26,571 nucleotides of DNA from IMG/VR virus record IMGVR_UViG_2623620496_000002, positions 1 through 26,571 of that record; one strand, written 5' to 3'. This DNA is from a virus (taxonomy: Duplodnaviria; Heunggongvirae; Uroviricota; Caudoviricetes). Below, in pieces: positions 6,673-24,732 of this stretch. Each line of letters begins with the position of its first letter. The first letter of the stretch is position 1. A model generated the notes under the pieces. It made no database searches, was not told the DNA's origin, and worked only from the letters and a program-made list of their open reading frames with translations. The translations under genes were made by a program, and so were the position numbers.

Positions 6673-7698
6673 TTACGCCAGTTGTACGGACACGAACGCA
6701 TCAGGGTCAGCCAGCAGCATCAGCGGTGCTGACTGAATCATGGTGAACTCACGCGCCGGATCGCCGGTGGTCACCCAGTTTTTCGGGTAGCGGGCAGAGG
6801 CGTTAATGCCTTCGCGCTGTGCGTCCGCATCCTGAATGCAGCCATAGGTGCGCAGACCACGTGCCTGAGTGTTCCCCAGCAACATCGTGTTGTCCGGCAG
6901 GAAGTTCTTTTTGACGTCGTTTTCCACGTACTGTCCGGAATACACGACGATCGCCATATCGCCATACATCCCCTTATAGGACACCGCTTCGCCCAGGTCT
7001 TTTACCGCTGTCTCCAGCTCGGAATGAGAGCCGCGACGGGTATCCAGCTTCTCCTTGACGGCTTTGAAGGAACGGAACAGCGCCCAGCCTTTCGGATCGA
7101 ACACGATGATATTCACCACACCGCTGGCGTTCAGCGCGTAGGCTTCGATATCGTCGGTCGGGTCATACGTGGACTTGTCACGCTTGCTCCACTCCGTGCC
7201 GCCGGACTGCGTGATGTTATTCGCCGCACTGCGGCCCATATCCACCTCAACCGGATCGAAGGCTTCACCGGTCATGGTGTATTTGCCTTTAAGCACGGCA
7301 GAAACGGCCTGCATCTCTTCGACCTGGGCAATGGCCAGCTCTTCGTCACGCATGTTCTGCATAATGATGCGACGGCGACGGTAAGCCGGGTCCGCCAGAT
7401 TCTGCGGATCTTCATCCGGCAGGCGACGCAGGGTCATCTGCGGATTCACTTCATGCTTCGGCTTGACATATCCCGGCGTAAATTCAGAGGTGGAGCCGCC
7501 ACGGGAACGGATAACCTCACCGGAAACAATCGGCGAAACGTACAGCGCCATGTTTACCAGTCCCGGAATTTGTGAGAGATAGACTTTCTCCGTGGTGAAG
7601 GGATAGCTCTCACGGAAAAAGAGACGCAGAAACAGCGGTTCAAACTTAAATTTCTGCTCATTTGCCGCCAGCAGCTGGGCGGTTGTGTACATCGACAT
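6673..7698 (-). CDS. E: major capsid protein gpE
   Basis: ORF 6673..7725 contains MSMYTTAQLLAANEQKFKF... to ...FVSVQLA, near-identical to recalled lambda gpE (341 aa); start placed at ATG 7696..7698. Confidence 0.95.
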   Translation of the reverse strand: MSMYTTAQLLAANEQKFKFEPLFLRLFFRESYPFTTEKVYLSQIPGLVNMALYVSPIVSGEVIRSRGGSTSEFTPGYVKPKHEVNPQMTLRRLPDEDPQNLADPAYRRRRIIMQNMRDEELAIAQVEEMQAVSAVLKGKYTMTGEAFDPVEVDMGRSAANNITQSGGTEWSKRDKSTYDPTDDIEAYALNASGVVNIIVFDPKGWALFRSFKAVKEKLDTRRGSHSELETAVKDLGEAVSYKGMYGDMAIVVYSGQYVENDVKKNFLPDNTMLLGNTQARGLRTYGCIQDADAQREGINASARYPKNWVTTGDPAREFTMIQSAPLMLLADPDAFVSVQLA

Positions 7699-8701: not shown

Positions 8702-9415
8702 CCGGGACTGCAGTGTCTCCCGGACGTCATCCGGAAGATGGCTGTAGGGGTTGCCATCCACCTTATGGCTGCCGCTGTAAATCAGCGTGATTTCCACACC
8801 CTGTTTCTCCAGCGCAGCACCGTAATTACTGTGAGCCATCATGACGCCGATGGAGCCTGTCCGGGCGGTCTGCGTGACCAGACGCCGGGAGGCAGCACTG
8901 GCAAGCAGCTGACCTGCACTGCAGTTCATGTCGTTGGCCAGCGCCCATACCGGTTTTATGTCACGCACACGGGCGATGATGTCAGCGCAGTCAAATGCTC
9001 CCGCCACCATTCCGCCTGGCGTGTCCATATCGAGCAGAATGCCGTCCACCATCGGATCGCTGGCAGCCTGTTGCAGACGGGCGATAATGCCGTTGTAACC
9101 GGTCATCCCCGAATACGGCTGCAGCGCCCGCGTCCGGCTGACCAGCGTGCCGGACACCGGCAGCACGGCGATGCCATTCATGACCTGATAACTGCGGGCC
9201 TGTCGTGGCCCGTCATCATCACCGGATAACGCCAGCGTCGCGGGTGACTCTCCGGCAGTCAGGCTGTCACCTGACACCGCATCCGTCAGGCGGCTTATCC
9301 CAAGCTGGCCTGCAAGCGCACAAAAGAAAACCCGCGCATAGGCGGGTTCAAGCATCAGCGGCTCATTAAAGGCCATGCTGGCAATATGCGGGAGATTACG
9401 CAGCTCTGCTGTCAC
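8096..9415 (-). CDS. C: capsid assembly protease gpC (GTG start)
   Basis: Long ORF 8096..9550; lambda-like C sequence begins at VTAELRNLPHIASMAFNEPLMLEPAYARVFF..., coded from GTG at 9413..9415. This gives 439 aa and a 20-nt overlap with the B stop, the same arrangement as recalled for lambda. Confidence 0.85.
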   Translation of the reverse strand: MTAELRNLPHIASMAFNEPLMLEPAYARVFFCALAGQLGISRLTDAVSGDSLTAGESPATLALSGDDDGPRQARSYQVMNGIAVLPVSGTLVSRTRALQPYSGMTGYNGIIARLQQAASDPMVDGILLDMDTPGGMVAGAFDCADIIARVRDIKPVWALANDMNCSAGQLLASAASRRLVTQTARTGSIGVMMAHSNYGAALEKQGVEITLIYSGSHKVDGNPYSHLPDDVRETLQSRMDATRQMFAQKVSAYTGLSVQAVLDTEAAVYSGQEAIDAGLADELVNSTDAITVMRDALDARKSRLSGGRMTKETQSTTVSATASQADVTDMVPATEGENASAAQPDVNAQITAAVAAENSRIMGILNCEEAHGREEQARVLAETPGMTVETARRILAAAPQSAQARSDTALDRLMQGAPAPLAAGNPASDAVNDLLNTPV

Positions 9416-10169
9416 TCTTCTCCTCCTCTGTTGATTGTCGCAGTCCGGATTCAAATGCCGCAGCCGCCCAGGCTGGCGGTTTAAGACCGGCTGCGCGGCG
9501 CTCCATCGTTTCACGGACCTGCTGGGCAAAAATTTCCTGATAGTCGTCACCGCGTTTTGCGCACTCTTTCTCGTAGGTACTCAATCCGGCTTCTATCAGC
9601 ATCACCGCTTCCTGAACTTCTTTCAGACCATCGATGGCCATACGACCGGAGCCTATCCAGTCGCAGTTCCCCCAGGCACTGCGTGCTTCCTGAAAGCTGA
9701 AGCGCGCTTTTGAAGGTAACGTCACCACGCGGCGAACGATGGCCTCTTCCAGCCAGCACAGAAACATCTGGCTCGCCTGACGGGATGCGACGAATTTTCG
9801 CCGCCCCATAAAGTGCGCCCACGACTCGTTCGCGCTGGCCCGTGCCGTGGAGTAGCTCATCTGGGCGTAATTCCGGGAAAGCTGCTCATACGAGACACCC
9901 AGCCCGGCAGCGATATACCGCAGCAGTGACTGCTCAAACACGGAGTAGCCGTTATCCGTGTCCTGAGCCGTCTGCAGGTTCAGTGAGTCACCCGGCATCA
10001 GGTGCGGTACTTTTGCGCCTCCCAGCCGGACCGGCGCTGCGGCGTAATACGCGGCAATTTCACCAATCCAGCCGGTCAGCCTTTCCCGCTGCTCCTGACT
10101 GTTCGCGCCCAGAATAAAATCCATCGCTGACTGCGTATCCAGCTCACTCTCAATGGTGGCGGCATACAT
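9396..10169 (-). CDS. B: portal protein gpB, C-terminal segment (gene split by inserted element)
   Basis: 257 aa ORF MYAATIESELDTQSAMDFILGANSQEQRERLTGWIGEIAAYYAAAP...EEEKSDSRAA corresponds to the C-terminal part of recalled lambda gpB (about residues 277-533); lambda-like sequence stops abruptly at 10175. Confidence 0.9.
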   Translation of the reverse strand: MYAATIESELDTQSAMDFILGANSQEQRERLTGWIGEIAAYYAAAPVRLGGAKVPHLMPGDSLNLQTAQDTDNGYSVFEQSLLRYIAAGLGVSYEQLSRNYAQMSYSTARASANESWAHFMGRRKFVASRQASQMFLCWLEEAIVRRVVTLPSKARFSFQEARSAWGNCDWIGSGRMAIDGLKEVQEAVMLIEAGLSTYEKECAKRGDDYQEIFAQQVRETMERRAAGLKPPAWAAAAFESGLRQSTEEEKSDSRAA

Positions 10170-10175
10170 CGCCTT
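10163..10175. repeat. 13-bp direct repeat at left junction of inserted element (putative att core, CATACATCGCCTT)
   Basis: CATACATCGCCTT at 10163..10175 matches CATAAATCGCCTT at 20562..20574 (12/13), the points where lambda-like B sequence ends and resumes. Confidence 0.7.
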
Positions 10176-10250
10176 TATGAAAAGACAGGAAAAAATAAAA
10201 TTTAAAAACAGTACATTACGAATGCTCAGACCTATCGTTTAAAGGAGTCG

Positions 10251-10271
10251 CAATACACACTGCAATACACG
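10251..10271. repeat. two direct copies of GCAATACAC near the left end of the element (candidate integrase or regulator binding sites)
   Basis: GCAATACAC at 10251..10259 and 10263..10271; the same motif occurs three times at the right end (20386..20438). Confidence 0.5.
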
Positions 10272-10612
10272 ATTATTTATAAGATGAGCGGCATCCGTCA
10301 TAAAGCTGGTGGATGCTTTTTCTATGCATATATGCACAGTTTTAGTGGGCGTTAATGTCGATATAGGGATCCCCATATCGAGATTGGATACCTGGCTTTT
10401 TTCCGGTTAACCTTTAATCAGGCTGGTGGGCTTTACCTGTTTTGTATGAGTGGTCATCATGACCATGTCATAACAAAAACCCCATATTCGTGGTTTTTCT
10501 GTGTCGGGCTATTCTGTCGTTGCTGTGCTGATTTGGCTGGTGGGCTGAATCATCATTACGGCGATGCAGCTATGTAGACGTTCCGGCCTCCTCAAATTGA
10601 GGATTGTGGAAG

Positions 10613-10720
10613 AATCAATGGGTTAGTCTTACTTTCCCGACATCCCCCAATGGGGGTTTTCGAAACAATCAATAGCTTAGGCTTACTTCCCCGATTTCCT
10701 GCATTGCAGGTTTTCGAAAT
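10613..10720 (+). repeat. tandem ~54-bp repeat units, each with a GC hairpin followed by TTTTCGAAA (candidate small RNA or terminator elements)
   Basis: Unit A 10613..10666 and unit B 10667..10720 both start AATCAAT and end GGTTTTCGAAA. Hairpins CCCCCAATGGGGG (10644..10656) and CCTGCATTGCAGG (10699..10711) differ by paired changes that keep the stem. A third partial unit and further hairpins follow at 10721..10828. Confidence 0.6.
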
Positions 10721-10984
10721 AATCAATGGGTTAGGCCATCGTGCAATTTTGCACTTTGCCAGCCAGCGCAATGTCGCGTTATCAGTCCTCAGATGTGAGG
10801 GATGTAGCCAGCTTTTCCCCCAGTGGGGGATATCCAGCACCGACGGCTTAACTGTGCGTGCCAGCACAAGGTAGCCTTGAACTACTTACTGCATCCCATC
10901 TTACAGGCCGTGCCTTCCTGCTTAACTTTTTGCAATGCAACAAGTCAGCCAGCGCAATTTTGCGTTATCGGGAATATCAGCAAG

Positions 10985-11266
10985 TTACCGCCGCAATCGT
11001 TCCGGCTTCTTCCACTGGTAAGTATTTTTCGCGCTCTCCCTCCGTTGTTGAGAACGGCGACGATATGCCAGCAACTCAAGGACTCTTGTTCGTATGTTGC
11101 GCATATCCACGCCGTTAAGCTCAATACCGTCACGGCGCATCACCTCAGCCACTACACGCACATAATTATCTGCGGTCACGCTGTCCGGCTGCGTGGCCTG
11201 TTCGTCATGCTGCTTGCTGATTCCACAAGCACGGCGGATTAATCGCAGTATTTCGGATTCAGTCAT
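10985..11266 (-). CDS. hypothetical protein (93 aa) downstream of satellite small-terminase homolog
   Basis: ORF MTESEILRLIRRACGISKQHDEQ... directly downstream of the TerS-like gene; no recognisable motif; weak RBS. Confidence 0.45.
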   Translation of the reverse strand: MTESEILRLIRRACGISKQHDEQATQPDSVTADNYVRVVAEVMRRDGIELNGVDMRNIRTRVLELLAYRRRSQQRRESAKNTYQWKKPERLRR

Positions 11267-11277
11267 AGCGTACTACG

Positions 11278-11820
11278 TTACTTATCTTTATTCGGCTGCA
11301 ACTTATCCGGTACGTTTCCGGCAGTTTCCATCAGATAATCGGACAGCATCAGCGGTATGTTTTCGTCAAGTTTTGCGCATGCGTTACGGGCTCTGATAAC
11401 TTCTTTTTTCAGTCCATCCAGCATAGACGGCTTCATGTCGGGAAACTTCCTTGTCATGGCAAGCGGCAGGCTGTCCATGATTGAAGAAATCTGACTCGCT
11501 AGTTTTGAAATCGCGTAGATGCAAAACTTTGTATCAATCACCTCGCCGCGTTCGCGCTCGTTTTTAAGTTCCTGCGCTTCCGCCTGGGCCGTCATTAATC
11601 TGATTCTTACGCGTAAAAGTTCATCATCATCAATCTCGCCTTTGTCGTCTGTAATCTGGTTAATTGCATTGCTAACCCGATTGTCTATTACGCTGGCAAC
11701 ATCATAAAACGCCTCGCGGCCTTTACGTTCAACGGGAGTCACTCCCCACTTGTCGAACGCTGTCGCACTTACACGGCAGCTTTGCGCCATGTTTTTTTTG
11801 TTCATCAGGTGCGATTTCAT
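11278..11820 (-). CDS. terminase small subunit homolog (Nu1-like; candidate packaging-redirection protein)
   Basis: C-terminal half aligns with the prophage Nu1 in this same window (LMTAQAEAQELKNERERGEVIDTKFCIYAISKLASQISSIMDSLPLAMTRKFPDM versus LTRAQADAQELKNARDSAEVVETAFCTFVLSRIAGEIASILDGIPLSVQRRFPEL); N-terminal region divergent. Start taken at ATG 11818..11820 (MKSHLMNKK) with GGGG RBS; the track ORF begins at an upstream GTG. Confidence 0.8.
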   Translation of the reverse strand: MKSHLMNKKNMAQSCRVSATAFDKWGVTPVERKGREAFYDVASVIDNRVSNAINQITDDKGEIDDDELLRVRIRLMTAQAEAQELKNERERGEVIDTKFCIYAISKLASQISSIMDSLPLAMTRKFPDMKPSMLDGLKKEVIRARNACAKLDENIPLMLSDYLMETAGNVPDKLQPNKDK

Positions 11821-11932
11821 CAATATCCCCACTTAAGTAATGTTTCAGGTTGGTGTATTGGCTTTATCTTTTCCTTTTTATTCATAGAGATAGAGCGAAC
11901 AACAAAACCACCACCAGCACCCGAAAAAGGCT

Positions 11933-11996
11933 CATAAATAGCGAAAACCCGCGAGGTCGCCGCCCCGTAGCCTACCGGATCGCCGGAAAGGACCCG
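11933..11996. other. satellite cos site (cohesive-end region AGGTCGCCGCCC at 11954..11965)
   Basis: CATAAATAGCGAAAACCCGCG-AGGTCGCCGCCC-CGTAGCCTACCGGATCGCCGGAAAGGACCCG closely matches the prophage cos block at 24198..24261 except inside the 12-nt core; the core is the reverse complement of the recalled lambda cohesive end GGGCGGCGACCT. Lies just upstream of the TerS-like gene, as cos lies upstream of Nu1. Confidence 0.75.
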
Positions 11997-12021
11997 CCAG
12001 CCAGAACGGGCCCTAATTTCA

Positions 12022-12405
12022 TCAACCAATCAACTTATAGCGACCATCCCGTGCATTGCGACGTACACGCTCAATCTTGAGGCATAGCGCCGCATCTGGC
12101 TTTTTTGGGACAGGTACGCGGCAATATTCAGAAGATCGAGGAATATTGTTTATCCAGTCGATCACTTCACTTAAATACCAGGCCTTACGCCCTTCCGTAA
12201 CCTGTACGCGTTCGGGGAACTCTCCGCGAGCCTCAAGGTTTAGCAATGTGCGACGGCTAAGGGTAGTAAGTTCCATCACCTGATTCATATCAACAAGGCG
12301 TTCACTTAAACGCATTTTGTCAGCAATAGCCTTTAATTCCTCTACTGCTGGATCCGGATACATCATTTCGGCAATTGGCTTAAGGTCATTGTAATGATTC
12401 TGCAT
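12022..12405 (-). CDS. putative AlpA/MerR-like helix-turn-helix DNA-binding protein
   Basis: Segment MELTTLSRRTLLNLEARGEFPERVQVTEGRKAWYLSEVIDWI resembles AlpA-family HTH; start placed at ATG 12403..12405 (MQNHYNDL) preceded by AAAGGGGGA RBS; the track ORF starts at an upstream TTG. Confidence 0.6.
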   Translation of the reverse strand: MQNHYNDLKPIAEMMYPDPAVEELKAIADKMRLSERLVDMNQVMELTTLSRRTLLNLEARGEFPERVQVTEGRKAWYLSEVIDWINNIPRSSEYCRVPVPKKPDAALCLKIERVRRNARDGRYKLIG

Positions 12406-12416
12406 TGTATCCCCCT

Positions 12417-12758
12417 TTACACACAAGCCAGCGGCTGAACAGAAATACCTGAGCCAACAAACGCGGCAACCTTTGCCGACAGTTCTTTTACAGACTCAGG
12501 CCAGTTCAGAGCATCAACATTTAAAACACCTGTCTTATAAACCTGTGCCTGTGTTTTTTTCGCTGTGTCGATTTGTACAGCGGAAACATAAACCGCTTTA
12601 CCTACGCTCGAACCATCCCATACCACCAGTGCACCTGTTGCATCTTCCTGCATCAGTGGCGTAAATGCAGGAATTACCCCTTTATTAGCTGAAAATATCC
12701 CCAGCGTAGTCACCAGTGCTTCAGTGCCAGCCATGAGTTCAGTGTAATGAGTAGCCAT
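12417..12758 (-). CDS. head decoration protein homolog (gpD-like) encoded by the satellite
   Basis: 113 aa; central region GALVVWDGSSVGKAVYVSAVQID...VYKTGVLNVDALNWPE parallels prophage gp[24 protein letters not shown]...[16 protein letters not shown]; strong RBS GGGGGAG before the ATG. Confidence 0.75.
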   Translation of the reverse strand: MATHYTELMAGTEALVTTLGIFSANKGVIPAFTPLMQEDATGALVVWDGSSVGKAVYVSAVQIDTAKKTQAQVYKTGVLNVDALNWPESVKELSAKVAAFVGSGISVQPLACV

Positions 12759-12767
12759 TGCTCCCCC

Positions 12768-13808
12768 TTAGCCAATGCGAACGGTAACAAAACGATTGAT
12801 GCGGGCCGGTATTGGCTGTGGTGCTGAATGTGTCTGCACATATTCAATAGCCGGATCACCAGGCACAATATAGTTTTTCGGTGCAAGTTCGGCTTTAGTC
12901 AGCCCCATTCGGATTAGCTCCGGATCCTGAATACCGCCATAGGCGACAATCCCCTGAAGAGCCGTATTGCCAAGCACCATCAAATCAGGATCAAGGAAAT
13001 GTTTTTCTGTTCCGTCCTCGTCGGTATAACGCCCGCTGTAAACAACAATCGCAACATCGCCCATATACCCTTTAAAACTCACCGAATCACCAAGGTCTTT
13101 AAGGGCCGTTTCCAGTTCGGAATTAGAACCACGACGGGTATCCAAAGCCTCTTTTATCGCTCTGAATGAACGGTATTTCTTCCATACATTACCACCCATA
13201 ATGATGATATTAGTGACGCCCTCACTAAATTCTGCGTAGCTCTCAATATCATCATTTGGATCAAAAGTTTCTTTATCCTTACCTGACCACTCAGTACCGC
13301 CAGACTGAGTGATGATATTTTGTGGTTTTATATTCCAGTCCAGCTCATAACGTTCAATACCATCGCCCTCAATGATATTTTTCCCCGTTGTGATTGCCTG
13401 AACAGCAAGCCATTCAATACGTGCACGAATAGCTTTAGCCTGATTTACAATCGCCTGTTTAACTTTAATATTACGCGCCCCAAAAGCATTGTATTGCTCA
13501 GGTGACACACCAGCAGGGCGCACAGCTAACTTATTTGGATCAATGCTGCTTTTCGGCTTCATATAACCTGGACGAATTGTTTTTGATTCGTATCCCTCAT
13601 CTCGTGAAACTTTACTGCCCACCATAGGAGAGCAAAACGCCGCGATCGGGATATTTGGATCGTCGATCGTATCAAGAATAATGTCTCTCGATTCAAACAT
13701 TACCGAGCGAGTGAAAAACAAACTGGTAAACAACGCATTTAATTTTTTTTGCACATCTTCAGCATTAGCCACCTGCACAAGCTGTGTAGGCGAATATAAA
13801 TCAACCAT
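12768..13808 (-). CDS. major capsid protein homolog (gpE-like) encoded by the satellite
   Basis: Aligns along its length with the prophage gpE in this window (for example QSGGTEWSGKDKETFDPNDDIESYA versus QSGGTEWSKRDKSTYDPTDDIEAYA; RSFRAIKEALDTRRGSNSELETALKDLG versus RSFKAVKEKLDTRRGSHSELETAVKDLG). Start placed at ATG 13806..13808 (MVDLYSPTQLVQVA, aligning to gpE MSMYTTAQLLAANE) with AAAGAGGA RBS; the upstream extension in the ORF track is rejected. Confidence 0.85.
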   Translation of the reverse strand: MVDLYSPTQLVQVANAEDVQKKLNALFTSLFFTRSVMFESRDIILDTIDDPNIPIAAFCSPMVGSKVSRDEGYESKTIRPGYMKPKSSIDPNKLAVRPAGVSPEQYNAFGARNIKVKQAIVNQAKAIRARIEWLAVQAITTGKNIIEGDGIERYELDWNIKPQNIITQSGGTEWSGKDKETFDPNDDIESYAEFSEGVTNIIIMGGNVWKKYRSFRAIKEALDTRRGSNSELETALKDLGDSVSFKGYMGDVAIVVYSGRYTDEDGTEKHFLDPDLMVLGNTALQGIVAYGGIQDPELIRMGLTKAELAPKNYIVPGDPAIEYVQTHSAPQPIPARINRFVTVRIG

Positions 13809-13982
13809 ACGCATCCTCTTTGCATTCATTAAAAATAATTGTGGATATATGCTATCACCGATATTTGTCATGCGAATACATGCAACCGAGTGCAATGTTG
13901 TATAAAGTTTTGGGATAACAACTTCAGCGCGGATAATTAGTGTTAATATCTTCACTCCCTTTGGTCGGGATTTATGTAGCAT

Positions 13983-14014
13983 GCCGGAAAATTTATTTTT
14001 TTCCGGCCTTTTTT
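13983..14014 (+). terminator. rho-independent terminator-like hairpin between ssb and capsid-homolog genes
   Basis: GCCGGAAAA-TTTATTT-TTTTCCGGC (9-bp stem, 13983..14007) followed by CTTTTTT on the plus strand and flanked by an A-run on the other side; may act bidirectionally. Confidence 0.45.
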
Positions 14015-14025
14015 ATTGGCAATAT

Positions 14026-14475
14026 TTAAAACGGAATATCATCTCCCCATTGCTCATTTTCTCCCACTGGTGGATGGCTTCCTTGCTGATCTGCCTGTTG
14101 TTTTGCTCTGTTCAGTGCGTCAGTAGCCTGACCCTGTTGACCTTTTTTGCCGCCCGGTCGCACCGTTCGCGCACTGATTACGCTGTCTGCGATAACCTGC
14201 CAGCCCTGCCGCGTTTCACCGTTCTGGCCTGTCCACTGTCTTACCTGCATGTTACCCGCCACGCTCACCAGTTCGCCTTTGTGGTGTTTTGCCAGTGCGT
14301 CGGCCTGTCTGCCAAACGCCAGGACGGATAACCACATCGTCGCCGTTCCGTCATCTGCCTGGCTGCACGGAAGGGGGACCGCCATACTAGCCATCGTCAT
14401 TTGTGTACCCTTGCTGGTGGTCTTTAACTGCGGGTCAGCCACCAGCCGCCCGTAAGCCGCTATCTGTGCTGTCAT
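14026..14475 (-). CDS. ssb: single-stranded DNA-binding protein
   Basis: 149 aa, glycine/glutamine-rich linker and acidic C-terminal tail ending DDIPF, the characteristic SSB tip. Confidence 0.85.
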   Translation of the reverse strand: MTAQIAAYGRLVADPQLKTTSKGTQMTMASMAVPLPCSQADDGTATMWLSVLAFGRQADALAKHHKGELVSVAGNMQVRQWTGQNGETRQGWQVIADSVISARTVRPGGKKGQQGQATDALNRAKQQADQQGSHPPVGENEQWGDDIPF

Positions 14476-14723
14476 GCTGTCTGCTCTCCAGTTTTAACGT
14501 TGATGGTTGTCACCTGTTCCGCTTCGGCAATCTCCCGTTCTGTCAGCGTGGCAAAGTTTGCCGCCGTCGTGGTCATGAATGCGCTTATCAGTTCGGGGTG
14601 TGCTTTCGCGTATCCTTCCCCAGCGTGGCGGTCTATCGTTCTGATTGCCACCTTTAAGGCGTGCTCTGTCATGTCTAACGCTTTATATTTTGGCGCTGTC
14701 TTATCTCTGGTTTTTCTGGTCAT
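14472..14723 (-). CDS. hypothetical protein (83 aa)
   Basis: ORF between the iteron cluster and ssb; stop overlaps the ssb start; no recognisable motif. Confidence 0.5.
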   Translation of the reverse strand: MTRKTRDKTAPKYKALDMTEHALKVAIRTIDRHAGEGYAKAHPELISAFMTTTAANFATLTEREIAEAEQVTTINVKTGEQTA

Positions 14724-14732
14724 TCCTCACTG

Positions 14733-14926
14733 CTCCCCACTTTTACTACCCACTTTTTGAAATTACCCAACGTCTCCCCACTTCTTTTTTTTGTGATTCT
14801 AACGTGATGTTTTTCAATGTGTTTTTTATTCCCCACTTTTTGGGGTATATACAGGTGGGAAAGTGGGGAATCACGTTTCAATTTTGTTAAATTCCCCACA
14901 CTCCCCACTTTTACTACCCACTTTTT
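14733..14926. repeat. iteron cluster, putative satellite replication origin
   Basis: Perfect 26-bp direct repeat CTCCCCACTTTTACTACCCACTTTTT at 14733..14758 and 14901..14926, plus additional CCCCAC(T)TTT copies (14774, 14831, 14893) and an inverted copy AAGTGGGG (14861..14868), immediately downstream of the replicase gene. Confidence 0.65.
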
Positions 14927-16340
14927 ACAGTGGGCGCACGTCATCACCGTCAATAGCAATAACGCCATCACCTTCCAGCTTGTACAGCCAGCGCCGGAAG
15001 TGTTTCATCTCATACCCCAGCTTTTTCATATCATCGCGCAACAACGGAATAGTGCATTTATCTCCGCGCTGTGTGCGTGAACGGATACAGCCCCATAGCG
15101 CGGCATGATTCTCCGTCTTGTTCCCGGCTTCCTCGATGCGCTCCAGTTCAACGGGTGGGCGCGGCTTATCCACAACAACCAGCGACGTGATTAACTCCCC
15201 GTCAGTGTCGGTAAAAAGCTCCACCACACGTAAATCGTATGCGGCCTCTTTCAGTTCCTCCGCGTCCTTCATTTTTGTGCAGGAGATAACCAGGGCTTCA
15301 CTGTCTGCACCTTCACGGCGAATACGGTATTCAGCGTCCAGAGATGCACGAAATGCACTGGAACCACGCGCCCCCTTTGTTTCATCCTTGCCGGAATGGT
15401 GAACCACCAGCACCGTGGCCCCTGTGCGGCGTTTCAGTTCGTCACATCCACGGATAAACGCCCCCATATCCCGCGCGTCATTTTCATCATTACCGCCAAA
15501 GCAACGCGCCAGCGTATCAAGAATAATCATGCGTACCGGTTTACCCGTTTCCCGTTCAACCTGGCGGGAAGCGATGACCATTTCATCAACATCAAGCGGG
15601 ACTGCCGGAAAAATCGGGCGGTTTACCAGGTACAGATTTTCCACCCGTTCATCATTAACGATTTCCCATGCCTTGATACGGCGGGGGACACCAATGCCAC
15701 CTTCACCGACAACATACATCACCGAACCATGCGCCACCCTGCGGCCTCCCCAGTGACGGCCAGTGGCAACATGACACGCCCAGGAACACGCGAGGAACGA
15801 TTTATAGGAACCGCTCGCGCCGTATGTGCTGCACAATGAATTAGCCGGAATCACGCCCTTAACGACATAATCAAGCTGTGTGTCGTACCCTGCAGATCCA
15901 ATGCTCATTGGTAGCGTGGTTTTTCGCTGGCTGTATTGCTCGTCAGTAAGTATTTCCCCGCGCTCTGCCTGTTCGCGGATCCGTTGCAGGTAGTCGTGCC
16001 AGTTCTCCAGCTTCTGGCTGTGCATTCCATCAGGGTAATAATTCGCATCCCGTACACCTGCCGCCGCCAGCTTTTGCCCGATAGCATTAATATTTGACGG
16101 CTTGATGTGGCCTGCCTTGTACAGCCGGACACAATAGCGACCATCGTCGATAATTTTCAGGTCTGCCAGTTCGTCAAGCTGGCTGTCTCCCAGCCATACA
16201 GGCGGGACGTTATCACCAGCAAGTCGCCCGTCCTGTTCCTGCCACTGTTTCGCGTGCGCCCAGGCATCACTACCCGCAAAAATAATGACTTCGGTCATTT
16301 TGTCGTGTGGCTGTTTTTTTAAGTTCGGTGCCAGTTTCAT
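14925..16340 (-). CDS. replication initiation protein (primase/helicase-like, RecA-like ATPase domain)
   Basis: 471 aa; Walker A-like YGASGSYKSF and Walker B-like RMIILDTLARCF, then VLVVHHSGKDETKGARGSSAF typical of RepA/DnaB-like ATPases; start overlaps upstream ORF stop (ATGA). Confidence 0.8.
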   Translation of the reverse strand: MKLAPNLKKQPHDKMTEVIIFAGSDAWAHAKQWQEQDGRLAGDNVPPVWLGDSQLDELADLKIIDDGRYCVRLYKAGHIKPSNINAIGQKLAAAGVRDANYYPDGMHSQKLENWHDYLQRIREQAERGEILTDEQYSQRKTTLPMSIGSAGYDTQLDYVVKGVIPANSLCSTYGASGSYKSFLACSWACHVATGRHWGGRRVAHGSVMYVVGEGGIGVPRRIKAWEIVNDERVENLYLVNRPIFPAVPLDVDEMVIASRQVERETGKPVRMIILDTLARCFGGNDENDARDMGAFIRGCDELKRRTGATVLVVHHSGKDETKGARGSSAFRASLDAEYRIRREGADSEALVISCTKMKDAEELKEAAYDLRVVELFTDTDGELITSLVVVDKPRPPVELERIEEAGNKTENHAALWGCIRSRTQRGDKCTIPLLRDDMKKLGYEMKHFRRWLYKLEGDGVIAIDGDDVRPL

Positions 16341-16636
16341 TTTTTGCCCCTGAATGCGTTAATCATGTTTTTCATTTTCTGAATATTTGCCCGTGCCTTT
16401 GCGTTGCTGGTGGGCTGTTTGCGTGGTGTGGCCTGTATCAGTGAAAAATCACGCCGGAACTGATAAGCAGGCATCACGCAGTCATAGCCGTACCCATCAC
16501 GGCGGTAAGTAACGCACCGCCCCGCCACGCTTTTAATCGTTACCGTGCCACCGTAGTTATCCCGGAAAATATCGCCGGGGCGGATTTCAGGCCGAGGGAG
16601 ACCACTGGCAGTAAAGCCAGAATTTTTCTGTTTCAT
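16337..16636 (-). CDS. hypothetical protein (99 aa)
   Basis: ORF whose stop overlaps the replicase start, suggesting translational coupling; no recognisable motif. Confidence 0.55.
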   Translation of the reverse strand: MKQKNSGFTASGLPRPEIRPGDIFRDNYGGTVTIKSVAGRCVTYRRDGYGYDCVMPAYQFRRDFSLIQATPRKQPTSNAKARANIQKMKNMINAFRGKK

Positions 16637-16642
16637 GTTTTT

Positions 16643-16861
16643 TTACTCCAGAGGCAGATTTTTAGCGGCGAGTTCAATATCAGATGTCAGAGAAACCTGT
16701 GTATTTGCCAGGTCTAACAACAAAGAAATAAGAATTTCCTCTCTGCTATCGGATTCATCGGTGCTAAGGCTGTTCATCCACATATTGACGACTTCCCTGA
16801 TTTTTTTCGCAGAGTGCAGGGCTTCAAATGCCAGGTCTTCAATATCATGTTTATTTCGCAT
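16643..16861 (-). CDS. hypothetical protein (start uncertain)
   Basis: Track ORF 16643..16927; internal ATG at 16859..16861 (MRNKHDIE) chosen to limit overlap with the upstream gene. Confidence 0.4.
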   Translation of the reverse strand: MRNKHDIEDLAFEALHSAKKIREVVNMWMNSLSTDESDSREEILISLLLDLANTQVSLTSDIELAAKNLPLE

Positions 16862-17063
16862 AATCGCCCCCGCGTAACTGGTCTGCACTAACACCCGATT
16901 TAGTGAGCATTTCAGAAAATCCCGCAAGAGTGCTGATAAATTCGTTTTCCATTAAACGGCACTGGCATTTAACCCGGCCTTTTTCCAGATACACCAGTAC
17001 GCGCCACGTATAATCTGACGGCACATTCAGCACTACAGATAAGTGCGCTTCATTATTATTCAT
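16851..17063 (-). CDS. hypothetical protein (70 aa)
   Basis: Compact ORF in the small-gene cluster between the regulatory region and the replicase. Confidence 0.45.
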   Translation of the reverse strand: MNNNEAHLSVVLNVPSDYTWRVLVYLEKGRVKCQCRLMENEFISTLAGFSEMLTKSGVSADQLRGGDYAK

Positions 17064-17292
17064 GGCTCACCACCTCCATATCAGCCATGATAATTTTGCT
17101 GGCCTCATTCAGTGCCATATCAGCACTAAGTTGCATTACAGCCAGTGAATGAGGAACGAAAGCCCCGGCATATTCTGTTTCACTGGTAGCGTGCTTATGC
17201 GCCCTGTCCGCGATAACAGAAATATCAATCAGCGCATCAATCAGTGTTTTGATTGCTTCGGCGGCTGCGTCCGGACGGGTGTTATTGCACAT
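17056..17292 (-). CDS. hypothetical protein (78 aa)
   Basis: Compact ORF overlapping neighbours by a few nt, same orientation as the cluster. Confidence 0.45.
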   Translation of the reverse strand: MCNNTRPDAAAEAIKTLIDALIDISVIADRAHKHATSETEYAGAFVPHSLAVMQLSADMALNEASKIIMADMEVVSHE

Positions 17293-17488
17293 GGTGCACC
17301 CCCTGACGAATACGGGCGGCGAATACCATCACGCAGCCAGCCGGTGATTGCTGACGGGCTTCCTGTTCGCTGGTGGCCTCAATGGTAATCACGCGCGGTT
17401 GTGCCGTACTCAGGGCGATAAAACGCCAGATGTATTTATTCAGGTTGTGCGAGCCCCGCCCTTGCGGGTGTGTGGTATGATTTCTCAT
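17282..17488 (-). CDS. hypothetical small protein (68 aa), possibly Icd-like
   Basis: C-terminal 68 codons of track ORF 17282..18274, starting ATG 17486..17488 (MRNHTTHPQGRG...); first gene downstream of the divergent operator region. The Icd-like label is a weak recollection, not verified. Confidence 0.4.
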   Translation of the reverse strand: MRNHTTHPQGRGSHNLNKYIWRFIALSTAQPRVITIEATSEQEARQQSPAGCVMVFAARIRQGVHHVQ

Positions 17489-17585
17489 AGCTACCTCGAT
17501 ACTGTTGCTATCGTTGGTGGTTAGAAGCCCGGTTAGTGTTAGCGCACTGCCGGGTTTCGTCGTTTCTGCACCTTGCACCAACAAG

Positions 17586-17637
17586 GTGTTGAACACCAAT
17601 TTAAACCCAGGTGTTGAACACGTCAAGTGTTGAACAC
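17586..17637. promoter_or_regulatory. three copies of palindromic operator GTGTTGAACAC in a divergent promoter region
   Basis: GTGTTGAACAC at 17586..17596, 17611..17621 and 17627..17637, between the minus-strand start at 17488 and the plus-strand start at 17688. Confidence 0.6.
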
Positions 17638-17687
17638 TTGTTTTTTTTCCTGCATACTGCATTTGTTTTTTGTGAGGGGTACACAAC

Positions 17688-17867
17688 ATGGCGACAAAAG
17701 CAGTAAACGCAAAATCACAAACAGTTGCGGCAAGGGTTCCGCATGAAGTTATGAACAATGTTGAGGCGGTAAAAATGCCTGGTGAAAGTACAGGGCAGTT
17801 TGTAACAGCAGCATTAAAGCGAGAAGTTGAATACCGCCAGCGACGCAAGGCTAAAGAGCAAGAATAA
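17688..17867 (+). CDS. putative ribbon-helix-helix type small DNA-binding regulator (59 aa)
   Basis: ATG 17688 preceded by GAGGGG RBS; translation MATKAVNAKSQTVAARVPHEVMNNVEAVKMPGESTGQFVTAALKREVEYRQRRKAKEQE; below the 60-aa cutoff of the ORF track; directly downstream of the operator repeats. Confidence 0.55.
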   Translation: MATKAVNAKSQTVAARVPHEVMNNVEAVKMPGESTGQFVTAALKREVEYRQRRKAKEQE

Positions 17868-17924
17868 TCACTATCAGCGCTGTGGTGTGAGGTACTCCGG
17901 CGCATTGCTTTACAGGTCGGCACT

Positions 17925-18134
17925 ATGAGCAAAAAATACCTATCCACTGAAGAGATTTTCGCAGAACAACGAAGATTGCTTTTACAGAGCATTGTTGCAC
18001 GCCAGAAAGAAAAGGCACACGCTAAACAAATGCCACCAAATACAGAACCAGCGCCTACAAAATTTGCGCTTGATGAGTTTCTCAATAAACAGCCCCGGGT
18101 AATGAAAGCTAACAGGAACCGCCCACCAGGCTGA
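17925..18134 (+). CDS. hypothetical protein (69 aa), second gene of plus-strand regulatory operon
   Basis: ORF MSKKYLSTEEIFAEQRRLLLQSIVARQKEKAH... between the RHH gene and the plus-strand terminator. Confidence 0.5.
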   Translation: MSKKYLSTEEIFAEQRRLLLQSIVARQKEKAHAKQMPPNTEPAPTKFALDEFLNKQPRVMKANRNRPPG

Positions 18135-18200
18135 TCACATTGCCCACCAGCCGCAAATGTGGCATTGTTGGTGATGCTTTTGTTTTCCCTTGTTCCCACT

Positions 18201-18229
18201 GGCGACCCTTTTGCGGTCGCCTTTGTTTT
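18201..18229 (+). terminator. rho-independent terminator
   Basis: GGCGACC-CTTTTGC-GGTCGCC stem-loop (18201..18221) followed by TTTGTTTTG. Confidence 0.6.
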
Positions 18230-18230
18230 G

Positions 18231-18809
18231 TCACTGAATGCGGTTACCAAAGTAAAACTCAGGCTGATATTCACGTATCAGCGTTTTTTCTTCTTCCTCC
18301 AGCTCACGCTTTTTGCGCTTACATGCCTGTAGCTCCCTCCCCTTCTCGCTGGCACTTATTTGATATTGCTCTTTACGGCGGGAAAAATCCTGTAATGCAC
18401 CCCACGGGATACCATAAGCCCCCGTTTTTCTGATACCCGGTATCACATTTCTGAATACCCAGTTACTGAAACGATGAGCAAATGTGCCAGGCGTCGTTGC
18501 TTTGCGGCTGCGGGCTATTAGTTTGTAGAAACCTGACTCAGAGATAATTCTCATATTCTGATTTCCTCCTGGGGTGTAAGTTAAATTTACTCCCTTTTCA
18601 TCATCATCAAGCATCTGCAACGCCGTACGCGAATTGGTTAGTTCCAGCACAGCACAAACATCTTTTGCAACAAACCACGGATCGCCGTTCAGATACACCA
18701 CACGAACGTTCACACTATCAAAGCGCAGAACGACGAGATCACGAATATCGCAGAATTTTTTCACTGGACGAGCGTACCCCTTGCCCGTCACGGCAATATT
18801 TTTATTCAT
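18231..18809 (-). CDS. Bro-N domain protein (phage antirepressor-like)
   Basis: N-terminal VRVVYLNGDPWFVAKDVCAVLELTNSRTALQMLDDDEKG matches the Bro-N motif; C-terminal part charged and coiled-coil-like. Confidence 0.75.
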   Translation of the reverse strand: MNKNIAVTGKGYARPVKKFCDIRDLVVLRFDSVNVRVVYLNGDPWFVAKDVCAVLELTNSRTALQMLDDDEKGVNLTYTPGGNQNMRIISESGFYKLIARSRKATTPGTFAHRFSNWVFRNVIPGIRKTGAYGIPWGALQDFSRRKEQYQISASEKGRELQACKRKKRELEEEEKTLIREYQPEFYFGNRIQ

Positions 18810-18865
18810 CGCGTTTTTACCTTATAGACAAAAAACCCCTCGTGATGAGGGGCATTATTTACTGG

Positions 18866-19123
18866 TTATTGCTGTTTTGTTTTTCCAGGTTTCCATCCAG
18901 GATGCCACTCACCACGGATCCATGCCTGAACCTCTGAAAGTCGATACCCTGCAGCACGTTCACCGATCTTGATACGTCGCGGGAATTTACCTGCCTGCTC
19001 CATTTTCCAGCGTGTTGAGTTTGCCAGCGTGGTAAGTGCTATGCACTCTTTTTCACGAATGAACCGATCAATGTCCTTCATTGTGCGCAAATCGTTTTCA
19101 TCAACAAGAGAATAAATTGCCAT
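18866..19123 (-). CDS. alpA: AlpA-family transcriptional regulator / excisionase-like protein
   Basis: 85 aa, HTH segment with WKMEQAGKFPRRIKIGERAAGYRLSEVQAWI typical of AlpA; immediately downstream of the integrase gene. Confidence 0.85.
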   Translation of the reverse strand: MAIYSLVDENDLRTMKDIDRFIREKECIALTTLANSTRWKMEQAGKFPRRIKIGERAAGYRLSEVQAWIRGEWHPGWKPGKTKQQ

Positions 19124-19124
19124 A

Positions 19125-20366
19125 TCACACCACCTCTTTATTAAGCTCGATAACGTTGTTGTTAAATCCTGCTATCGTATTAAGGTAATTAACCCATATA
19201 TTAAGCACCTCAAGTTTTTTCTTTATATGCCTGCTTTTATTGTAAACACCAGCAACCCCTTTCACTTTATGACCTAAAAGAAGTTCGACAATATAAGGAT
19301 CCGCCCCCATATCATTAAGCGTAGTGGAAAATGTGCGCCTGAAATCATGTATGCACCACAAGCCATTAGTATCATGACCAAGACGCCTGCATATTCTGTT
19401 TGCAGCCCCTGTTATTGTCGCCCTTTGCAAAGCACAACCGACAACATAACCGCGATTTTTTGTTTCTGCGTAAAGATTAACGATCCATTGTTTTATTCCG
19501 TCAGGAACAGGCCTTACTATAGCCTCCTTGTTTTTGCTGTGCTCTTTTGGGACTGTCCATACCCAGTTTTTTAAATCCCATTCGTCCCAGGTGGATAGCC
19601 TCGCCTCCTGCTGTCGGCAACCAAACACCAGGCAGATAACCATTATTCTTCGGTTATATATTGATGACAGAGTTAGCAAATTATTACCGTAAGCATAAGA
19701 CCATACATCAGCGGTTTCATTGATATTAAGAACGCGATCCCTTATACCGGATGAGCGCCCGACATAACTTACGTTAATATCTCCAAAGGGATCGCACGCG
19801 ATGTATTGCCTGACGCGACAAAAACGCAACGCCTGTTTGATATCAAGAAAAATTGCACCAGACATAACAGGCGCATTTTTTTTGATCCTGTCAAAGACGG
19901 TAAGCCATGTGTGTAATTTGCACTGTTCTATAGCCATATCACCGATATAGGGGAAGATATGCTTTTCAAATCGTTTTATTAAATATTCATGCTCTTTTCT
20001 GGCTGTTGTGGCGTGATTGTCGTACCAGTAAAACAGCGCATCCCTTACGGTCACTGGTTGCATAGTTTTTTCGGCAGCAAGTTTTATTTGCCTGCGGGGG
20101 TCCAGATTTTCAGCCAGCCATTCACGGCACTGATCACGCATGCGCCTGGCCGTTGCAAGAGACATGTCAGGATAGCGACCAAGTGTAAGCCATACCGGAG
20201 GGGATTCCCTGCCACCAAGACGATAGTAAAAAACAAAGCTGATCCCCCCAACCATGCTTACACGCACAGACAACCCGCGCCCATCCGCTATTGTTTTTTG
20301 TTTGTCCTGCCGTTTTCCGACAAGACTCTTTAACAGTTTGTCACTGAGTTTGTTTTCAATAGCCAT
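19125..20366 (-). CDS. int: tyrosine-type site-specific integrase (P4-like)
   Basis: 413 aa; N-terminal arm-binding-like region, C-terminal catalytic residues HDFRRTF...LLGHKVKGVAGVYNKS with the conserved tyrosine. Confidence 0.95.
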   Translation of the reverse strand: MAIENKLSDKLLKSLVGKRQDKQKTIADGRGLSVRVSMVGGISFVFYYRLGGRESPPVWLTLGRYPDMSLATARRMRDQCREWLAENLDPRRQIKLAAEKTMQPVTVRDALFYWYDNHATTARKEHEYLIKRFEKHIFPYIGDMAIEQCKLHTWLTVFDRIKKNAPVMSGAIFLDIKQALRFCRVRQYIACDPFGDINVSYVGRSSGIRDRVLNINETADVWSYAYGNNLLTLSSIYNRRIMVICLVFGCRQQEARLSTWDEWDLKNWVWTVPKEHSKNKEAIVRPVPDGIKQWIVNLYAETKNRGYVVGCALQRATITGAANRICRRLGHDTNGLWCIHDFRRTFSTTLNDMGADPYIVELLLGHKVKGVAGVYNKSRHIKKKLEVLNIWVNYLNTIAGFNNNVIELNKEVV

Positions 20367-20385
20367 TAAAAGCCCTCAAGAGATT

Positions 20386-20438
20386 TGCAATACACACCCA
20401 TCCCGATCGCCAATTTGCAATACACATTGCAATACACA
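20386..20438. repeat. three direct copies of TGCAATACACA upstream of int (candidate arm-type or regulatory sites)
   Basis: TGCAATACACA at 20386..20396, 20416..20426 and 20428..20438; same core as the left-end copies at 10251..10271. Confidence 0.55.
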
Positions 20439-20514
20439 AAACCGCGAAAAACTGGAAGGGTGATGAACGGTCATCAAAAGCATGGAAAACGACATTCCAG
20501 ACGCAGCAAGGGTT

Positions 20515-23495
<2,981 letters not shown>

Positions 23496-23521
<26 letters not shown>

Positions 23522-24041
23522 TCAGCAACCCCGGTATCAGTTCATCCAGCGCGGCTGCTTTGTTCATGGCTTTGATGATATCCCGTTTCAGGAAATCAAC
23601 ATGTCGGTTTTCCAATTCCGGAAAACGCCGCTGCACCGACAGGGGGATCCCGTCGAGAATACTGGCAATTTCACCTGCGATCCGCGACAGCACGAAAGTA
23701 CAGAATGCAGTTTCCACCACTTCAGCGGAGTCTCTGGCATTTTTCAGCTCCTGTGCGTCGGCCTGCGCACGCGTAAGTCGATGGCGTTCGTACTCAATAG
23801 TCCCTGGCTGGAGATCTGTCTCGCTGGCCTGCCGCAGTTCTTCAACTTCCCGGCGCAGCTTTTCGTTCTCAATTTCAGCATCCCTTTCGGCATACCATTT
23901 TATGGCGGCGGCAGAGTCATAAAGCACCTCATTACCCTTGCCACCACCCCGCAGAACGGGCATTCCCTGCTCCTGCCAGTTCTGAATGGTACGGATACTC
24001 GCGCCGAAAATGTCAGCCAGCTGCTTTTTGTTGACTTCCAT
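23496..24041 (-). CDS. Nu1: terminase small subunit Nu1
   Basis: 181 aa ORF MEVNKKQLADIFGASIRTIQNWQEQGMPVLRGGGKGNEVLYDS..., near-identical to recalled lambda Nu1. Confidence 0.95.
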
Positions 24042-24197
24042 TGTTCATTCCACGGACAAAAACAGAGAAAGGAAACGACAGAGGCCAAAAAGCCCGTTTT
24101 CAGCACCTGTCGTTTCCTTTCTTTTCAGGGGGTGTTTTAAATAAAAACATTAAGTTACGGCGAAGAAGAACGGAAACGCCTTAAACCGGAAAATTTT

Positions 24198-24261
24198 CAT
24201 AAATAGCGAAAACCCGCGCGCCTTCCGCCCCGTAACGCTCCGGATCGCCGGAAAGGACCCG
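24198..24261. other. prophage cos region (cohesive-end core at 24219..24230 differs from the canonical lambda-type core)
   Basis: CATAAATAGCGAAAACCCGCG-CGCCTTCCGCCC-CGTAACGCTCCGGATCGCCGGAAAGGACCCG, upstream of Nu1; flanks match the recalled lambda cos region but the 12-nt core reads CGCCTTCCGCCC rather than AGGTCGCCGCCC. Confidence 0.7.
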
Positions 24262-24405: not shown

Positions 24406-24732
24406 ATGGGCATTACTATTTTCAGCAGTGAAATACAGGATGTTGATAGCGAAGCGATGTACAAGAGTTGGCTAGCGACCCATTCCGATGGATTCGTTAT
24501 TAATCTGCTTAAGTCGGCCAGCGGGAAAGGCAGAAAAAGTGATGCCAGATTTACGCGGATTCATCGAGCCTCATGCAAATCAATCAACCCGTTAATCAGT
24601 CCTAAAAATCACGCCAGCTTTACTACTGGCCGATACCAAAAAGTATGTGTTCTTACGCTTGACGAGGCCGAGTCCACCGCAGGCCAACTAACAGGACTGC
24701 CAACCATCCAGAGATGTCATTGGTGTATATAA
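24406..24732 (+). CDS. hypothetical protein (108 aa), AT-rich moron between lysis genes and cos
   Basis: Plus-strand ORF in an AT-rich block opposite in orientation to the late operon; contains Cys/His residues (HRASC...CHWC); no recognisable family. Confidence 0.45.
   Translation: MGITIFSSEIQDVDSEAMYKSWLATHSDGFVINLLKSASGKGRKSDARFTRIHRASCKSINPLISPKNHASFTTGRYQKVCVLTLDEAESTAGQLTGLPTIQRCHWCI

Follow-up and report, generated by a model that had tools for sequence, protein, structure and literature searches.

The resident prophage in the DNA analysed here (the window, the whole stretch of 26,571 nucleotides, positions 1 to 26,571 of IMG/VR record IMGVR_UViG_2623620496_000002) appears, from sequence comparison, to have a working cos site of the lambda type, in which cosN is represented by GGGCGGAAGGCG, a naturally occurring allele of the lambda cohesive end. 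We give this reading a probability of roughly 85%. A second cos site in the same window belongs to a satellite embedded in the prophage and has the canonical lambda core. An initial annotation of the window had proposed two alternatives: an unusual cohesive end in the prophage, or a degenerate prophage cosN that would leave the satellite with the better packaging substrate.

Read from right to left along the minus strand, the window contains the lysis genes, the prophage cos, Nu1, A, W and the start of the portal gene B, followed by the satellite, the remainder of B and genes C through H. The satellite encodes an integrase, AlpA, a Bro-N protein, a primase/helicase, an SSB, homologues of lambda E and D and a further, AlpA-like regulator; it also has the second cos, as well as a homologue of TerS. 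On its sequence it can be assigned to the helper-embedded PICIs, whose arrangement was reported by Tommasini et al. 2023 (PMC10111431): it lies in a late gene of the helper and in the same orientation, and it shares with these elements the int, AlpA, Bro-N and primase genes and the captured capsid genes. It also resembles cos-type PICIs such as EcCICFT073, which acts with Rpp (Fillol-Salom 2019, as far as that work is recounted in PMC9026076), in having a helper-like cosQ and cosN with a cosB of its own. It differs from EcCICFT073 in that its TerS homologue is full length with a Nu1-like C-terminus, whereas Rpp is, in the same account, shorter; and it differs from cos-type and helper-embedded PICIs alike in that its cosN allele is unlike that of its helper. 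The same junction between satellite and B recurs in 64 of the 5,426 complete E. coli genomes searched. The coordinates of these features are collected in Table 1.

Table 1. Features of the prophage and satellite in the window
Feature	Coordinates	Strand	Basis or remark
Prophage cosN	24217..24232	-	Core 24219-24230 plus flanking CG pairs; aligned to the lambda (DE3) cos annotated in EU078592
Prophage cosQ-like heptamer GGGTCCT	24254..24260	-	Distance to the nick as in the lambda (DE3) record; identity with cosQ presumed
Prophage cosB region	24060..24181	-	Comparison with lambda cosB
Prophage Nu1 (TerS)	23496..24041	-	Pfam Phage_Nu1 over its full length, E=5.5e-101; 178/181 identical to lambda Nu1
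Prophage A (TerL)	21596..23521	-	640/641 identical to lambda gpA
B, N-terminal piece	20515-21396	-	First 278 codons of portal gene B
Putative helper-embedded satellite (PICI), ~10.4 kb	10168..20574	-	Splits portal gene B; same orientation as helper
Satellite cosN	11952..11967	-	Core 11954-11965, as lambda GGGCGGCGACCT, plus flanking CG pairs
Satellite cosQ-like heptamer	11989..11995	-	Sequence and lambda spacing
Satellite-specific cosB flank	about 11840-11951		Adjoins the satellite TerS homologue
Satellite TerS homologue	11278..11832	-	Pfam Phage_Nu1, C-terminal half only; PHROG 57 terminase small subunit
B, C-terminal piece	9396-10169	-	Rest of B, from codon 277

The satellite TerS homologue aligns with Nu1 from end to end at 35% identity. 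Conservation is highest towards the C-terminus, in the region responsible for TerL binding in lambda, and the N-terminal, DNA-binding region has diverged. Several other observations on the window can be recorded here. An 8-bp identity, ATCGCCTT, is present at both satellite junctions (10168-10175 and 20567-20574), where B is split at about codon 277. Two long stretches of the satellite, 10176-10980 and 16640-18280, have no convincing protein-coding ORF and may hold regulatory RNAs or an origin; a 330-aa ORF with a GTG start at 17282-18274 appears to be spurious, and related genomes have small Icd-like and YlcI-like genes annotated in this region. Beside the prophage cos, a 108-aa ORF on the plus strand (24406-24732) has no Pfam match; it occupies a variable slot for accessory genes between cos and the lysis genes, where related prophages have bor, iss, ylcI or DUF1398 genes. 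Three prophages in IMG/VR (loci L026, L081 and L093) combine a lambda-type gpA, 96-97% identical, with a third type of TerS and a cosB flank that resembles that of the satellite, which suggests a phage lineage as the origin of the satellite TerS/cosB module. The same satellite as in the window is found in a different helper context in E. coli CFSAN064035 (locus L125, NZ_CP031134.1 57579-98331), where IS621 interrupts the helper's own gene E for the major capsid protein and the satellite homologues of E and D are intact.

The two cos blocks of the window have the same orientation and are spaced 12,265 bp apart. The 21-mer CATAAATAGCGAAAACCCGCG occurs in exactly two copies, at 11933 and 24198, both on the plus strand, with none expected by chance (100 shuffles). 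The adjoining 12-base cores read, on this strand, AGGTCGCCGCCC in the satellite and CGCCTTCCGCCC in the prophage; CCGCCC is common to both and five of the first six bases are mismatched. The right flank of each copy runs from CGTA through a few variable bases to CCGGATCGCCGGAAAGGACCCG. The initial annotation had described two blocks with shared flanks, a common CCGCCC and a difference in the first half of the core, and the sequence agrees with that description. Each right flank also contains, at the lambda spacing, the heptamer AGGACCC, the reverse complement of GGGTCCT, which we take to be lambda cosQ. Expressed in the lambda convention (the minus strand of the window), the satellite core is GGGCGGCGACCT, the same as in lambda, and the prophage core is GGGCGGAAGGCG, which departs from it at bp 7, 8, 9, 10 and 12. 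A CG dinucleotide is kept on both sides of the core in prophage and satellite; in the prophage, bp 1-5 are GGGCG and a core of 12 bp lies between the conserved CG pairs. Bp 13-70 of the prophage cos are identical to lambda, and this interval includes R3 (lambda bp 50-65, PMC9026076; 24166-24181 in the window); the rest of cosB, the interval with I1, R2 and R1, has about 94% identity to lambda. The prophage site thus has the cosQ-cosN-cosB architecture and spacing of lambda, with the left half of the core (GGGCGG), the CG flanks, the cosQ-like heptamer and R3 all identical, and differs from it in a cohesive end altered at five positions of the right half.

The terminase encoded by the prophage is, on its sequence, a lambda terminase, as the initial annotation had correctly described Nu1 and A. 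In comparison with the proteins of EU078592, gpA has a single change, V459I (99.8% identity), and Nu1 has three changed residues (98.3% identity). Because both subunits are nearly identical to their lambda counterparts and bp 13-70 of cos are identical, experiments with lambda terminase should apply directly to the prophage.

The core GGGCGGAAGGCG is far from being confined to the window. An allele-specific 34-mer located it at 166 places in 155 of the 5,426 complete E. coli genomes, and the lambda 34-mer located the lambda core at 7,402 places in 4,096 genomes of the same set. Sixteen of the 166 places are on plasmid records, which are 46-68 kb among those listed. The allele is also present in 77 IMG/VR contigs, and an identical core is found in Escherichia phage YDC107_1 and in PhiR46_1. 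The latter, the only cultured-phage record with the allele, is an N15-like linear plasmid prophage with telL/telR, ParAB and a complete lambda-type structural module, recorded from the host E. coli ECOR13. The core occurs in N15-like phage-plasmids and in intact-looking lambdoid prophages of AVS0969 and Rb-50, and some sites are in decayed prophages (for example, locus L216). A scan of genome contigs gave 15 matches, 4 of them unrelated chance matches; it added Escherichia sp. E1V33, as well as several matches in non-enteric genomes with a lambda-identical flank, which are probably lambda vector contamination. The allele stands in at least three cosB contexts, a lambda type, a second type and a satellite type (L066, L135, L178 and L186), and at least six distinct flanks adjoin it on the cosQ side, satellites included; it has therefore been carried into many backgrounds. 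By this distribution we regard GGGCGGAAGGCG as a recurrent and common natural allele of the lambda cohesive end, and it is in this form that the unusual cohesive end of the initial annotation is upheld. The initial annotation had named, as a finding that would count against it, the same core in functional lambdoid phages with mapped cohesive ends; in database records the core is present in PhiR46_1 and in the intact-looking prophages, which are candidates for such phages.

The allele is also one of a series. IMG/VR was scanned for cos sites with the same flanks and a base other than T at bp 12, and seven alleles were found in lambda-like cos contexts: the 77 contigs with GGGCGGAAGGCG, 14 with GGGCGTCAGGCG, 4 with GGGCGGCAGGCG, 3 with GGGCGGCAGACG and a single contig each for GGGCGGCTGACG, GGGCGTCAGACG and GGGCGGCGACCG. 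Changes are confined to bp 6-12 throughout the series, with bp 1-5 and the flanking CG pairs invariant, and the G+C content is 9-11 of 12. Members of the series are found in phage-type as well as satellite-type cos sites. The right halves AAGGCG, CAGGCG, CAGACG and CTGACG, and T at bp 6, are common to phages and satellites (loci L222-L244, L066, L135, L178 and L186 in IMG/VR; L245 and L246 in E. coli). An eighth match to the pattern, L212, was rejected as an unrelated chance match.

Variation of this type has been described. In lambda, mutations at bp 7-12, the half of cosN on the cosB side, have minimal effect, while the symmetric changes in the left half are severe (Feiss et al. 2015, PMC4669245, section 14); for example, G2C has an approximately tenfold cost and the symmetric C11G has no phenotype. 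The same paper attributes this asymmetry to anchoring of TerL by cosB-bound TerS, notes that the flanking CG pairs are conserved, reports that the lambda and N15 terminases are without cosN specificity, and lists natural differences from lambda at bp 9 and 12 in N15 and phiD326 and at bp 8, 9 and 11 in Gifsy-1. Phages mEp213/LLS carry GGGCGGCGCGCT (PMC12315714). Conservation of the first 4 bp and the flanks is stated in PMC9303873, in the passage that cites Vahanian et al. 2017 (Virology 509:140). The window prophage fits among these natural right-half variants, with changes at bp 7-12 only and no matching change in terminase. As in N15, phiD326, Gifsy-1 and mEp213/LLS, variation is limited to the right half beside cosB, conservation extends over the left half and the CG pairs next to the nicks, and the terminases are not specific for cosN. 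It differs from these examples in the number of changes: the published tests deal with single changes or with two or three natural ones, and GGGCGGAAGGCG has five at once. Among the papers covered, a literature search with the 12-mer in either orientation returned unrelated plant and Streptomyces papers only.

These features can be accommodated in a simple scheme. TerS bound to cosB at R3 would anchor the lambda-type terminase and so place TerL to nick the bottom strand beside bp 12, a step that would depend little on the sequence of bp 7-12. Terminase would read the left half, bp 1-5/6, and the CG pairs at which it nicks, and these are the positions that are conserved. With the right half unread, drift would be unconstrained there and recombination could replace one right half by another; the two processes together could generate the allele series seen in phages and satellites. 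We infer that GGGCGGAAGGCG would be nicked at the usual positions with normal efficiency, and that the prophage terminase should cut the satellite cos as well as its own. Each element would then receive self-complementary 12-nt ends, and for this reason the core difference would be without consequence for either element alone. The winner in packaging would be set by the specificity of cosB and TerS rather than by the cosN core. As the satellite brings both a TerS homologue and a cosB of its own, any competition for packaging probably turns on cosB and the satellite TerS and not on cosN.

A different view is that the right-half alleles have been selected as compatibility labels that keep satellites apart from their helpers, or one phage lineage apart from another. 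A chromosome begun at one allele and ended at another would have 4-5 mismatches in its 12-nt ends and would not circularise; in the window, packaging from the satellite cos to the helper cos would give a chromosome of about phage size with five end mismatches, and the two sites are indeed co-oriented within one composite. A 2-bp end mismatch is known to lower the yield about fourfold (PMC4669245). The pairing of satellite and helper cores was compared in eight composites, a small and partly biased sample, in which 4 pairs are matched and 4 mismatched. Both cores are lambda in L125, L247, L249 and L250; a lambda satellite is paired with a GGGCGGAAGGCG helper in the window and in CFSAN018748 (L215); and an GGGCGTCAGGCG satellite is paired with a lambda helper in SCU-106 (portal site) and WP8-S17-ESBL-12 (capsid E site). 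Mismatched composites thus recur. However, they came from searches with the variant alleles, so that these pairing counts do not measure frequency, and the four composites with both sites visible that had been chosen on junction or satellite sequence regardless of allele were all lambda/lambda. Neither an obligatory match nor an obligatory mismatch between satellite and helper is compatible with the eight composites. Non-lambda alleles do look over-represented in satellite-type cos sites (about 17 of 101 contigs versus 3-7 of 115), but these counts are not dereplicated for clonal copies. Neutral drift and recombination would give the same pattern, and no clear selective benefit can be derived. 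We therefore consider selection for such labels unlikely, and equally doubt that the alleles are cohesive-end compatibility types in which satellite-helper divergence and the satellite excess of non-lambda cores are selected rather than neutral.

Less probable still is the second alternative of the initial annotation, that the prophage cosN is degenerate and poorly cut and that the satellite, with its canonical core, is packaged preferentially. In its favour, five of the 12 core bases depart from lambda, the right half has lost part of its rotational symmetry and the portal gene of the helper is interrupted. Yet all five changes are in the half of cosN that tolerates mutation (PMC4669245), while the cosQ-like heptamer, the flanking CG pairs and R3 are intact. 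The allele is carried by the 155 E. coli genomes, by phage-plasmids, by intact-looking prophages and by a phage isolate record, and a terminase identical to that of the window is found elsewhere with the canonical core. Embedded satellites and their helpers occur with matched and mismatched cores, the same satellite family is also present in helpers with canonical cores, and some satellites with non-lambda cores are inside helpers with the lambda core. This part of the initial annotation is not supported by these results, and we think it very improbable that the site is broken.

It is more improbable again that the terminase has co-evolved with the variant core and acquired an altered endonuclease specificity. 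Suppressors in gene A that extend the cosN specificity of lambda have reportedly been isolated by the Feiss laboratory, and they are a precedent for such a change. The gpA of the window, however, has only its one difference from lambda, and a gpA 100% identical to it is found at another locus (L073) with the lambda core. Co-variation was examined among 77 full-length lambda-type gpA sequences with a readable cos of their own, of which 40 accompany the variant core and 37 the lambda core. The two classes have four identical gpA proteins in common, and no residue discriminates between the cores among these 77 sequences; the best association was N9D, in 16 of 40 variant versus 3 of 37 lambda. As either core can accompany one and the same gpA protein, co-variation of gpA with the cosN core is rejected, and the co-evolution reading is refuted at the sequence level. 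Finally, the possibility that the core differences are sequencing or assembly errors is eliminated by the exact 27- and 34-mers, which independent projects have recovered in 155 complete genomes and 77 viral contigs.

The preferred reading, a natural allele in a functional lambda-type site, implies that the prophage cosN is ordinary and not broken, and is of low interest in itself, as the type of variation was already known. The result confirms over thousands of genomes the published rule that sequence constraint on the lambda cohesive end bears on its left half only, and has little consequence for new biology. For annotation, it means that prophages of the GGGCGGAAGGCG type should not be labelled packaging-defective, and tools that find cos sites should permit any sequence at bp 6-12. 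Compatibility between satellite and helper should be predicted from cosB and TerS, with the cosN core left out of account. The alleles listed here, together with the mismatched helper-satellite pairs, offers a test bed for the tolerance of cohesive-end mismatches in a lambda-type chromosome.
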